From NCBI GenBank assembly GCA_029932755.1, contig JAOZPK010000001.1:1-48579 (forward strand): a stretch of 48,579 nt of DNA. Reading direction: 5' to 3'. The stretch itself is not shown here. This DNA is from Candidatus Cloacimonadota bacterium (lineage in GTDB: Bacteria > Cloacimonadota > Cloacimonadia > Cloacimonadales > TCS61). The text below is the continuation of a report on this DNA, generated by a model with database tools.

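Follow-up and report, generated by a model that had tools for sequence, protein, structure and literature searches.

Pfam and NCBIfam scans reproduced all domain assignments of the sequence-only reading. The island comprises 21 open reading frames (ORFs), all located on the + strand between positions 256 and 26297, and the ORF list contains no competing long ORF on the opposite strand. Its gene content is as follows.

Gene content of the island based on Pfam and NCBIfam scans
+ strand: GntR/FCD regulator
+ strand: alpha and beta subunits of an ADP-forming acyl-CoA synthetase (ACD), bracketing IorA and IorB (together IOR)
+ strand: HyuA and HyuB (together HyuAB)
9510..10646, + strand: protein with Rossmann and Octopine_DH domains, opine-dehydrogenase family (ODH-like)
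10659..11660, + strand: OTC-family carbamoyltransferase (OTC-like)
+ strand: Dpp/Opp-type ABC importer, five genes
+ strand: xanthine-dehydrogenase-family (XDH-family) molybdenum enzyme, three subunits
20929..22311, + strand: amidohydrolase (Amh)
+ strand: two DHO_dh + 2x[4Fe-4S] proteins (PreA-like 1 and 2)
+ strand: NCS2 permease

According to the ORF list, the tight gene junctions of the sequence-only reading are real. The gaps of more than 40 nt that it had listed stand as well, but its count of three was too low, as a fourth lies at 22312-22376. Two gene starts were revised: the second PreA-like gene most likely starts at ATG 23578 with GGAGG ahead and then shows no overlap with its neighbour, and gene callers place the start of IorB at 4324. 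The proposed strong terminator was confirmed at 26317-26344 (an 11-bp stem followed by a T run), and no comparable terminator was found inside the island. Four intergenic gaps of 47-146 nt could hold promoters; promoter-like sites were no commoner than in shuffled sequence, so that the promoter scan is silent on sub-operons. Neither the window nor 11 related loci gave a match at the gathering score of any Rfam family, so that riboswitches provide no clue to the substrate. The G+C content of the island is 0.39-0.44 versus 0.30-0.36 downstream. Genes for Fic and AbiEii (toxin-antitoxin) come right after the island, and type-9-secretion sorting domains occur in the genes flanking it.

IorB is the sole island protein that scored over a curated equivalog cutoff of NCBIfam (208.1 versus 205.8 bits), while IorA remained just under the respective cutoff (626 versus 650.9 bits). 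The best models for other proteins of the island were as follows.

Best-matching models of island proteins, with score and cutoff in bits
HyuA: CapA, 714, cutoff 1000
HyuB: CapB, 437, cutoff 1000
XDH Mo subunit: XdhA, 514, cutoff 780
Amidohydrolase: SsnA, 255, cutoff 444
PreA-like 1 and 2: PreA, 162 and 157, cutoff 335
NCS2 permease: pbuX, 201, cutoff 414

The comparative data consist entirely of MAGs and metagenome contigs. More than 500 homologs of the ODH-like protein were detected; the best 120 share 63-96% identity with it, and their named hosts are Atribacteria, Tepidanaerobacteraceae, Lachnospiraceae, Spirochaetales and other Bacillota. Three MAGs carry the following arrangements, in which Grd denotes a selenoprotein reductase and AFOR a tungsten-type aldehyde:ferredoxin oxidoreductase.

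Gene order in three related MAGs
Lachnospiraceae MAG: HyuA-HyuB-ODH-OTC-PreA-Amh-XDH(3 subunits)-permease-carbamate kinase
Tepidanaerobacteraceae MAG: ACDa-IorA-IorB-ACDb-HyuA-HyuB-ODH-OTC-Amh-DUF1097-PreA-XDH(3 subunits)-carbamate kinase-PALP gene
Spirochaetales MAG: GntR-HyuA-HyuB-ODH-OTC-GrdB-GrdE-...-GrdCD-Fer4-AFOR-XDH...

A profile-guided scan of metagenome contigs added 80 more loci, which were annotated through tblastn searches with the window proteins and through clustering of all ORFs. The counts for the 47 loci of at least 8 kb are lower bounds, since most contigs end within the cluster.

Occurrence of gene families in the 47 loci of at least 8 kb (lower bounds)
ODH-like: 42/47
HyuB: 40/47
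HyuA: 39/47
OTC-like: 36/47
XDH Mo/Fe-S subunits: 24/47
XDH FAD subunit: 21/47
AFOR: 20/47
IorA: 18/47
ACD alpha: 16/47
PreA-like: 15/47
Amidohydrolase: 13/47

The 14 loci with at least 9 kb on either side of the ODH gene provide a cleaner measure. In this full-flank set, HyuAB was present throughout (14/14), as was at least one of XDH, PreA-like and amidohydrolase (14/14). OTC-like and XDH genes were each found in 12 of the 14 loci, PreA-like genes in ten and the amidohydrolase in eight. IOR/ACD genes accompanied nine of these loci, and at least one of IOR/ACD, Grd and AFOR occurred in 12/14. A reciprocal search starting from the amidohydrolase showed this family to be equally conserved (60-68% identity across phyla), and many of its matches appear to share contigs with the ODH matches, judged by equal lengths of the longest contigs. 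Three of the amidohydrolase-anchored loci read ...Grd-AFOR-XDH-Amh-PreA, followed by a Bmp/PnrA-type ABC importer.

The sequence-only reading had treated co-occurrence of its sub-clusters elsewhere as the decisive test, and the same families indeed lie together in several phyla in rearranged order. The IOR/ACD genes precede HyuA in some loci and follow the amidohydrolase in others, ACDa-IorA-IorB-ACDb being a fixed four-gene unit embedded in the nucleobase-type cluster. Across the related loci, the PreA-like gene and the amidohydrolase are always neighbours. Linkage that is kept despite rearrangement is the usual signature of a functional unit. Even within a distant ODH clade (~50% identical), one locus (L090) keeps the same partners, and two others (L083, L084) keep PreA, HyuAB, ODH, NCS2 and ACD/IOR, with no OTC-like gene within reach. 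The Dpp-type ABC block was treated as accessory, because it is restricted to three close relatives of the window (L016-L018) and L083.

Next, we analyzed the individual enzymes. The ODH-like protein scores 121 bits on PF02317 (cutoff 30) and aligns over its full length with N-(1-D-carboxyethyl)-L-norvaline dehydrogenase (CENDH, 1bg6; E 4e-41). In this alignment the catalytic His (NAITH) and the R-x-x-x-E-D motif are kept, and neither varies among 27 orthologs. The protein is thus, with high probability, a genuine dehydrogenase whose target is a C-N bond beside a carboxylate. Its second Rossmann strand, as read from the sequence, ends in Asp (RLFD), which usually indicates NAD rather than NADP. 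For the OTC-like protein, the nearest match is the Pyrococcus OTC (E 5e-65). It keeps HPxQ and HCLP, with STRTR changed to STRTS, and the DxxxSMG motif, which binds the alpha-amino acid end of ornithine, is replaced by VYSWVSP beside an insertion. The protein thus lacks the full motif set of ornithine carbamoyltransferases and also falls below the TIGR00658 cutoff by a small shortfall (272.5 versus 280.85 bits). HCLP is typical of enzymes carbamoylating primary alkylamines (ornithine and putrescine transcarbamylases), whereas aspartate transcarbamylase carries HPLP. Retention of HCLP together with the replaced DxxxSMG suggests that the substrate may be an alkyl-ureido compound other than citrulline.

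HyuAB consists of Hydantoinase_A and Hydantoinase_B subunits encoded side by side and is thus a member of this ATP-dependent family. The nearest relative of HyuB is the ATP-dependent caprolactamase 6yra, followed by the N-methylhydantoinase 7hk5; considering how far both subunits score under the caprolactamase cutoffs, their specificity is not that of CapAB. That a fermenter should spend ATP on this step implies a ring whose opening is thermodynamically difficult. The amidohydrolase was assigned by profile models to the SsnA / chlorohydrolase / deaminase group, whose members attack amidine-type carbons, and could catalyze either ring opening as in SsnA or deamination. The PreA-like proteins score about equally on DHODH and PreA models and have neither an FAD/NAD(P)H domain nor an NAD(P)H-binding partner, so that their presumed electron donor, by analogy with the proposal for UacX, is ferredoxin reduced by IOR (or AFOR).

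At the positions of bovine Glu802, Arg880 and Glu1261, the XDH-family enzyme of the window carries Asp, Lys and Glu, a set that is strictly conserved among orthologs of this type and deviates from the canonical xanthine dehydrogenase residues. A second XDH type in three loci (L012, L013, L022) has the canonical Glu802, Arg880 and Glu1261 and is associated with the same HyuAB-ODH-OTC-PreA-Amh core. The NCS2 permease shows the NAT signature SQN, with Gln, a residue shared with XanQ and UacT (xanthine and urate carriers); in uracil permeases, Glu occupies this position.

The closest known counterpart in gene logic is the E. coli locus xdhD-ygfM, ygfK, ssnA, hyuA, ygeW, yqeA, ygeY and ygeX (PMC12507026), which encodes the reductive uric-acid / 2,8-dioxopurine pathway (PMC12507026; bioRxiv 10.1101/2025.04.24.650524). 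In this pathway, XdhD-YgfM reduces urate to 2,8-dioxopurine, the ring is reduced by YgfK and opened by SsnA to ureidomethylhydantoin, and the dihydropyrimidinase-type HyuA converts the latter to 2,3-diureidopropionate without ATP; YgeW then phosphorolyses one ureido group, YqeA uses the carbamoyl phosphate to form ATP, and YgeY and YgeX complete the conversion to pyruvate (PMC12507026). YgfK alone shows no detectable activity and needs coupling to SsnA, and ygfK and ssnA co-localise (PMC12507026). Published variants include UacX in place of YgfK and UacY in place of YgeW, both found in C. difficile, as well as an F420 enzyme of Chloroflexota; UacX belongs to PF01180, lacks an FAD domain and is similar to the clostridial PydA, which depends on ferredoxin (PMC12507026).

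Both systems are anaerobic co-directional clusters with an XDH-family Mo enzyme, a PF01180 Fe-S flavoenzyme of the UacX type paired with an SsnA-group amidohydrolase, hydantoin-type ring opening, a UacT/XanQ-family nucleobase permease, and a carbamoyltransferase plus YqeA-type carbamate kinase giving ATP, the kinase being encoded in relatives of the island. The assignment of the two PreA-like proteins to the UacX type is based on the published architecture of UacX. The analogy drawn in the sequence-only reading thus holds for the kinds of upstream parts, though not for an ortholog set. In place of the dihydropyrimidinase-type HyuA the island encodes the ATP-dependent HyuAB, and its carbamoyltransferase is OTC-like instead of the knotted YgeW type; the XDH enzyme has three subunits and an Asp/Lys active-site pair, unlike XdhD or XdhA. 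The invariant opine-dehydrogenase-family enzyme and the IOR/ACD, AFOR or Grd outlet modules set the cluster type of the island apart from this pathway.

Sequence identities to the E. coli proteins are 24% for the amidohydrolase (SsnA), 30% and 28% for the XDH Mo subunit (XdhA and XdhD), 30% for the OTC-like protein (YgeW) and 29% for the NCS2 permease (UacT). The amidohydrolase reached 248 and 255 bits on the SsnA equivalogs TIGR03314 and PRK07203 (cutoffs 455.5 and 444), and the OTC-like protein 110 and 100 bits on the YgeW models (cutoffs 453 and 500), which sets it apart from YgeW and UacY. No dihydropyrimidinase-type HyuA is present in the window, and among ~85 loci tblastn found one only as an upstream gene in the Spirochaete locus L014. 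For YgeY and YgeX, tblastn gave no match at E<=1e-10 in the window or in ~85 related loci. Orthology with the E. coli urate cluster was rejected on the basis of the 24-31% identities of island proteins and the lack of YgeX/YgeY, in agreement with the expectation that the enzymes are not close orthologs of characterised pathway members. The only clearly related protein is the in-cluster carbamate kinase of the relatives, with 48% identity between the L013 enzyme and YqeA.

The xanthinase pathway (Rabinowitz) is an anaerobic purine fermentation that starts from XDH-interconverted purines and ends in glycine for glycine reductase; the Grd-type reductase in some relatives of the cluster resembles this outlet. 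In contrast to the island, the pathway is not known to include a reductive step, ATP-dependent ring opening or a transcarbamylase. Its clostridial genes, reportedly described by Tong et al. in 2023 in Cell Chem Biol, are said to encode four hydrolases and a prenyl-FMN decarboxylase. A UbiD-type domain is absent from all 21 island proteins (Pfam/NCBIfam), and identity with the xanthinase pathway was rejected because the island has no decarboxylase.

The aerobic creatinine pathway consists of creatinine deaminase, the ATP-dependent N-methylhydantoinase HyuAB, N-carbamoylsarcosine amidase and sarcosine oxidase. It shares with the island the two-subunit ATP-dependent HyuAB, a deaminase-group amidohydrolase, an N-carbamoyl intermediate and the need for an enzyme cleaving a secondary-amine amino acid. 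In the island, however, the carbamoyl group would be removed by phosphorolysis instead of hydrolysis and an NAD-type opine dehydrogenase would replace the oxidase, and the creatinine pathway has no place for XDH, PreA-like reductases or nucleobase transporters. Neither N-carbamoylsarcosine amidase nor sarcosine oxidase/reductase was detected in the window (Pfam/NCBIfam). With the Pyd pathway and its clostridial PydA, the island shares the DHO_dh + 2x[4Fe-4S] reductase architecture and the logic of ring reduction, hydrolysis and ureido group removal; the same scans found no dihydropyrimidinase or beta-ureidopropionase in the window, which has XDH, HyuAB, ODH and IOR/ACD genes in addition. Archaeal and clostridial IOR and ACD pairs of aromatic amino-acid fermentation perform the chemistry that is also predicted for the island unit (2-oxoacid to acyl-CoA to acid plus ATP) and produce reduced ferredoxin; of the two IOR subunits of the island, IorB scores over its equivalog cutoff and IorA just under it. 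The island differs from these pairs by the embedding of a fixed unit in a nucleobase-type cluster.

Several observations favour a purine as the substrate. These are the Gln in the NAT signature of the NCS2 permease, the Bmp/PnrA-type importer at the end of Spirochaete clusters, a family associated with purine nucleosides, the canonical residues of the second XDH type, the YqeC, SelA and SelB genes near some clusters, and a YgfK-like / formate-dehydrogenase-like fusion that adjoins the OTC-like gene and carbamate kinase in L022. Other genes point elsewhere. Six loci encode a complete Grd-type selenoprotein reductase after the OTC-like gene, whose subunits are nearest to sarcosine reductase but far under the cutoffs (366 versus 800 and 290 versus 780). 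Eight loci insert a corrinoid protein, MtmB-family and MttB-family methyltransferases and an SbnB-like OCD-family dehydrogenase, and individual loci contain, in addition, a DHDPS-type aldolase, a transketolase-like gene, a 2-hydroxyacid dehydrogenase or an aldehyde dehydrogenase. As a whole, the outlet genes suggest a small 2-oxoacid, aldehyde or N-substituted glycine-type compound as the form in which the carbon skeleton exits the core; this compound would then be oxidised (IOR/ACD or AFOR) or reduced (Grd). Three candidate routes were considered, each of which fits some modules: urate via 4,5-dihydrourate to a 2-oxoimidazolidine-4-carboxylate-type intermediate opened by HyuAB; 6,8-dioxopurine to hydantoin-5-carboxamide; and albizziin via 3-ureidopyruvate and N-carbamoylglycine to glycine. 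None of the three is preferred here. A picolinate/homarine-type lactam route, weighed for the OTC-less variant (L083, L084), was not adopted for the main clade, where the presence of the OTC-like gene and carbamate kinase calls for a ureido group.

On balance, we lean towards the view that the island works as one catabolic system, with a nucleobase-type cyclic ureide, and most likely a purine, as its substrate. The Mo hydroxylase would act at the start, followed by the reductase and ring opener; an ATP-primed second ring opening would then lead to ureido phosphorolysis, and an NAD-linked C-N redox step would precede 2-oxoacid oxidation with ATP formation. The family memberships, the maintained linkage, the carbamate kinase inside the cluster of relatives and the missing orthology to known pathways are direct results, whereas we infer the order of these steps, the electron flow through ferredoxin and the identity of every intermediate.

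Alternatively, the known reductive uric-acid (2,8-dioxopurine) pathway could be run by non-orthologous enzymes. It would pass through the known intermediates (ureidomethylhydantoin, 2,3-diureidopropionate, albizziin and possibly diaminopropionate), with HyuAB standing in for the D-hydantoinase HyuA, the OTC-like enzyme for YgeW and/or YgeY, and ODH plus IOR/ACD for YgeX and pyruvate oxidation. The upstream parts are of the same type (XDH family, UacX-type reductase, SsnA-like amidohydrolase, YqeA-type carbamate kinase), enzyme exchanges already exist among the published variants (UacX, UacY, the Chloroflexota F420 enzyme; PMC12507026), L022 has its YgfK-like or formate-dehydrogenase-like fusion, and an HCLP-bearing OTC-like enzyme may suit albizziin, a citrulline homolog. 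Nevertheless, we consider this explanation unlikely. Since an ordinary HyuA opens ureidomethylhydantoin without ATP, HyuAB would be wasteful there, which argues that its intermediate differs from that of the E. coli pathway; moreover, the ~85 loci have no YgeX/YgeY homolog, the amidohydrolase is 24-26% identical to SsnA and under both SsnA models, the window XDH shares 28% identity with XdhD, and nothing in that pathway corresponds to the invariant ODH-like enzyme. That the cluster degrades a pyrimidine (uracil, thymine or orotate) appears very improbable. In this case, the PreA-like proteins would be dihydropyrimidine/dihydroorotate dehydrogenases, with opening of the dihydro ring left to the amidohydrolase or HyuAB; N-carbamoyl-beta-alanine or N-carbamoyl-aspartate would be phosphorolysed by the OTC-like enzyme, and IOR/ACD would take the resulting oxoacid. 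The equal scores on DHODH and PreA models agree with this, as do the ferredoxin-dependent clostridial PydA of the same architecture (cited in PMC12507026) and Spirochaete loci in which a class-III aminotransferase and a genuine dihydropyrimidinase (TIGR02033, 567 bits > 393 cutoff) lie immediately upstream. However, no ATP is needed to open dihydrouracil or dihydroorotate, the NCS2 motif carries Gln instead of the uracil-permease Glu, the second XDH type carries canonical xanthine-dehydrogenase residues, XDH-family and opine-dehydrogenase-family enzymes have no role in the reductive pathway, and its two hydrolases are missing from the window.

Degradation of creatinine, N-methylhydantoin or another N1-substituted hydantoin by the HyuAB-ODH-OTC core would give many outlet genes a function, yet we regard it as quite doubtful. 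Here, the amidohydrolase would be a creatinine deiminase and HyuAB an ATP-dependent N-methylhydantoinase, the function for which such enzymes are best known and to which the second-best HyuB match (7hk5) belongs. The OTC-like enzyme would phosphorolyse N-carbamoylsarcosine, and the ODH-like enzyme would oxidise sarcosine, the simplest 'opine', to glyoxylate and methylamine; for sarcosine, methylamine and glyoxylate, the outlets would be Grd, MtmB-type methyltransferases, AFOR and IOR/ACD. GrdF/GrdG-nearest subunits directly after the OTC-like gene together with a fused GrdCD, found in Spirochaete and other loci, would be in line with this, a fused GrdCD also being present in the N-methylhydantoin degrader Clostridium sp. 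FS41. The same applies to the methyltransferase and corrinoid protein module of eight loci, and the DHDPS-type aldolase, transketolase-like gene and 2-hydroxyacid dehydrogenase of some loci suit glyoxylate. Creatinine leaves no role for XDH or PreA-like enzymes, linked in 12/14 and 10/14 full-flank loci, or for transporters of the nucleobase/nucleoside type (NCS2 with purine-type motif, Bmp/PnrA). Furthermore, in the sole anaerobic N-methylhydantoin degrader studied, the hydantoinase works independently of ATP and an amidase cleaves N-carbamoylsarcosine hydrolytically. The Grd subunits score far under the sarcosine-specific cutoffs, and HCLP transcarbamylases, which generally act on primary alkylamines, would not be expected to accept an N-methyl alpha-amino acid. 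Finally, independent operons (an aromatic-amino-acid IOR/ACD, a peptide importer with lactamase and a xanthine dehydrogenase salvage unit) could be juxtaposed by chance or merely for regulation, without a shared pathway. The four gaps with room for promoters, the clearly accessory Dpp-type ABC block and the closeness of IorA and IorB to bona fide IOR models are compatible with such a view, and the G+C content above that of the flanks together with the toxin-antitoxin neighbours means that the island may be a mosaic. The conserved linkage in several phyla despite order changes, the lack of an internal terminator and the shuffle-level frequency of promoter-like sites render this explanation extremely unlikely.

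We rate the four enzymes HyuA-HyuB-ODH-OTC as a conserved core without a characterised counterpart and place the cluster among anaerobic nucleobase-degradation clusters. No description of the gene combination was found in full-text searches of open-access and bioRxiv literature, and an earlier description is possible. The 2025 papers on anaerobic urate degradation (PMC12507026; bioRxiv 10.1101/2025.04.24.650524) do not mention oxoprolinase-type hydantoinases, opine dehydrogenases or IOR, and a 2025 commentary on them does not mention hydantoinase, oxoprolinase or opine. It is possible, though short of probable, that a nucleobase-type catabolic system of this kind represents a fourth anaerobic route for the degradation of a purine (or a close nucleobase), present in six or more phyla from sediments and host-associated habitats. 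In such a route, reductive ring opening would yield a stable five-membered cyclic ureide that HyuAB primes with ATP, and a new OTC-family transcarbamylase would recover this investment as carbamoyl phosphate. The opine-dehydrogenase-family enzyme would have its first known role in nucleobase catabolism, and a dedicated IOR/ACD, or in some lineages a new Grd-type selenoprotein reductase, would give further ATP; carbon would exit as a 2-oxoacid or glycine-type compound and not as diaminopropionate.

Anaerobic purine breakdown has been resolved only lately: the xanthinase pathway dates from 2023 and the reductive uric-acid pathway from 2025. Urate removal by gut bacteria is of medical interest. 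The cluster follows the logic of the reductive pathway, yet without orthologs of the known enzymes, and it adds ATP-primed ring opening, a new transcarbamylase and an opine-type dehydrogenase. Among its carriers are Cloacimonadota, Atribacteria, Spirochaetes and Tepidanaerobacteraceae, lineages that predominate in digesters and anoxic sediments, settings with a high turnover of nucleic acids. The system lends itself to direct testing, since every part is a soluble enzyme for which candidate substrates are evident. If the proposal is true, it would provide functions for four highly conserved, unnamed enzyme families and a new way of energy conservation from a ureide, and it would change how purine-degrading capacity is scored in metagenomes.

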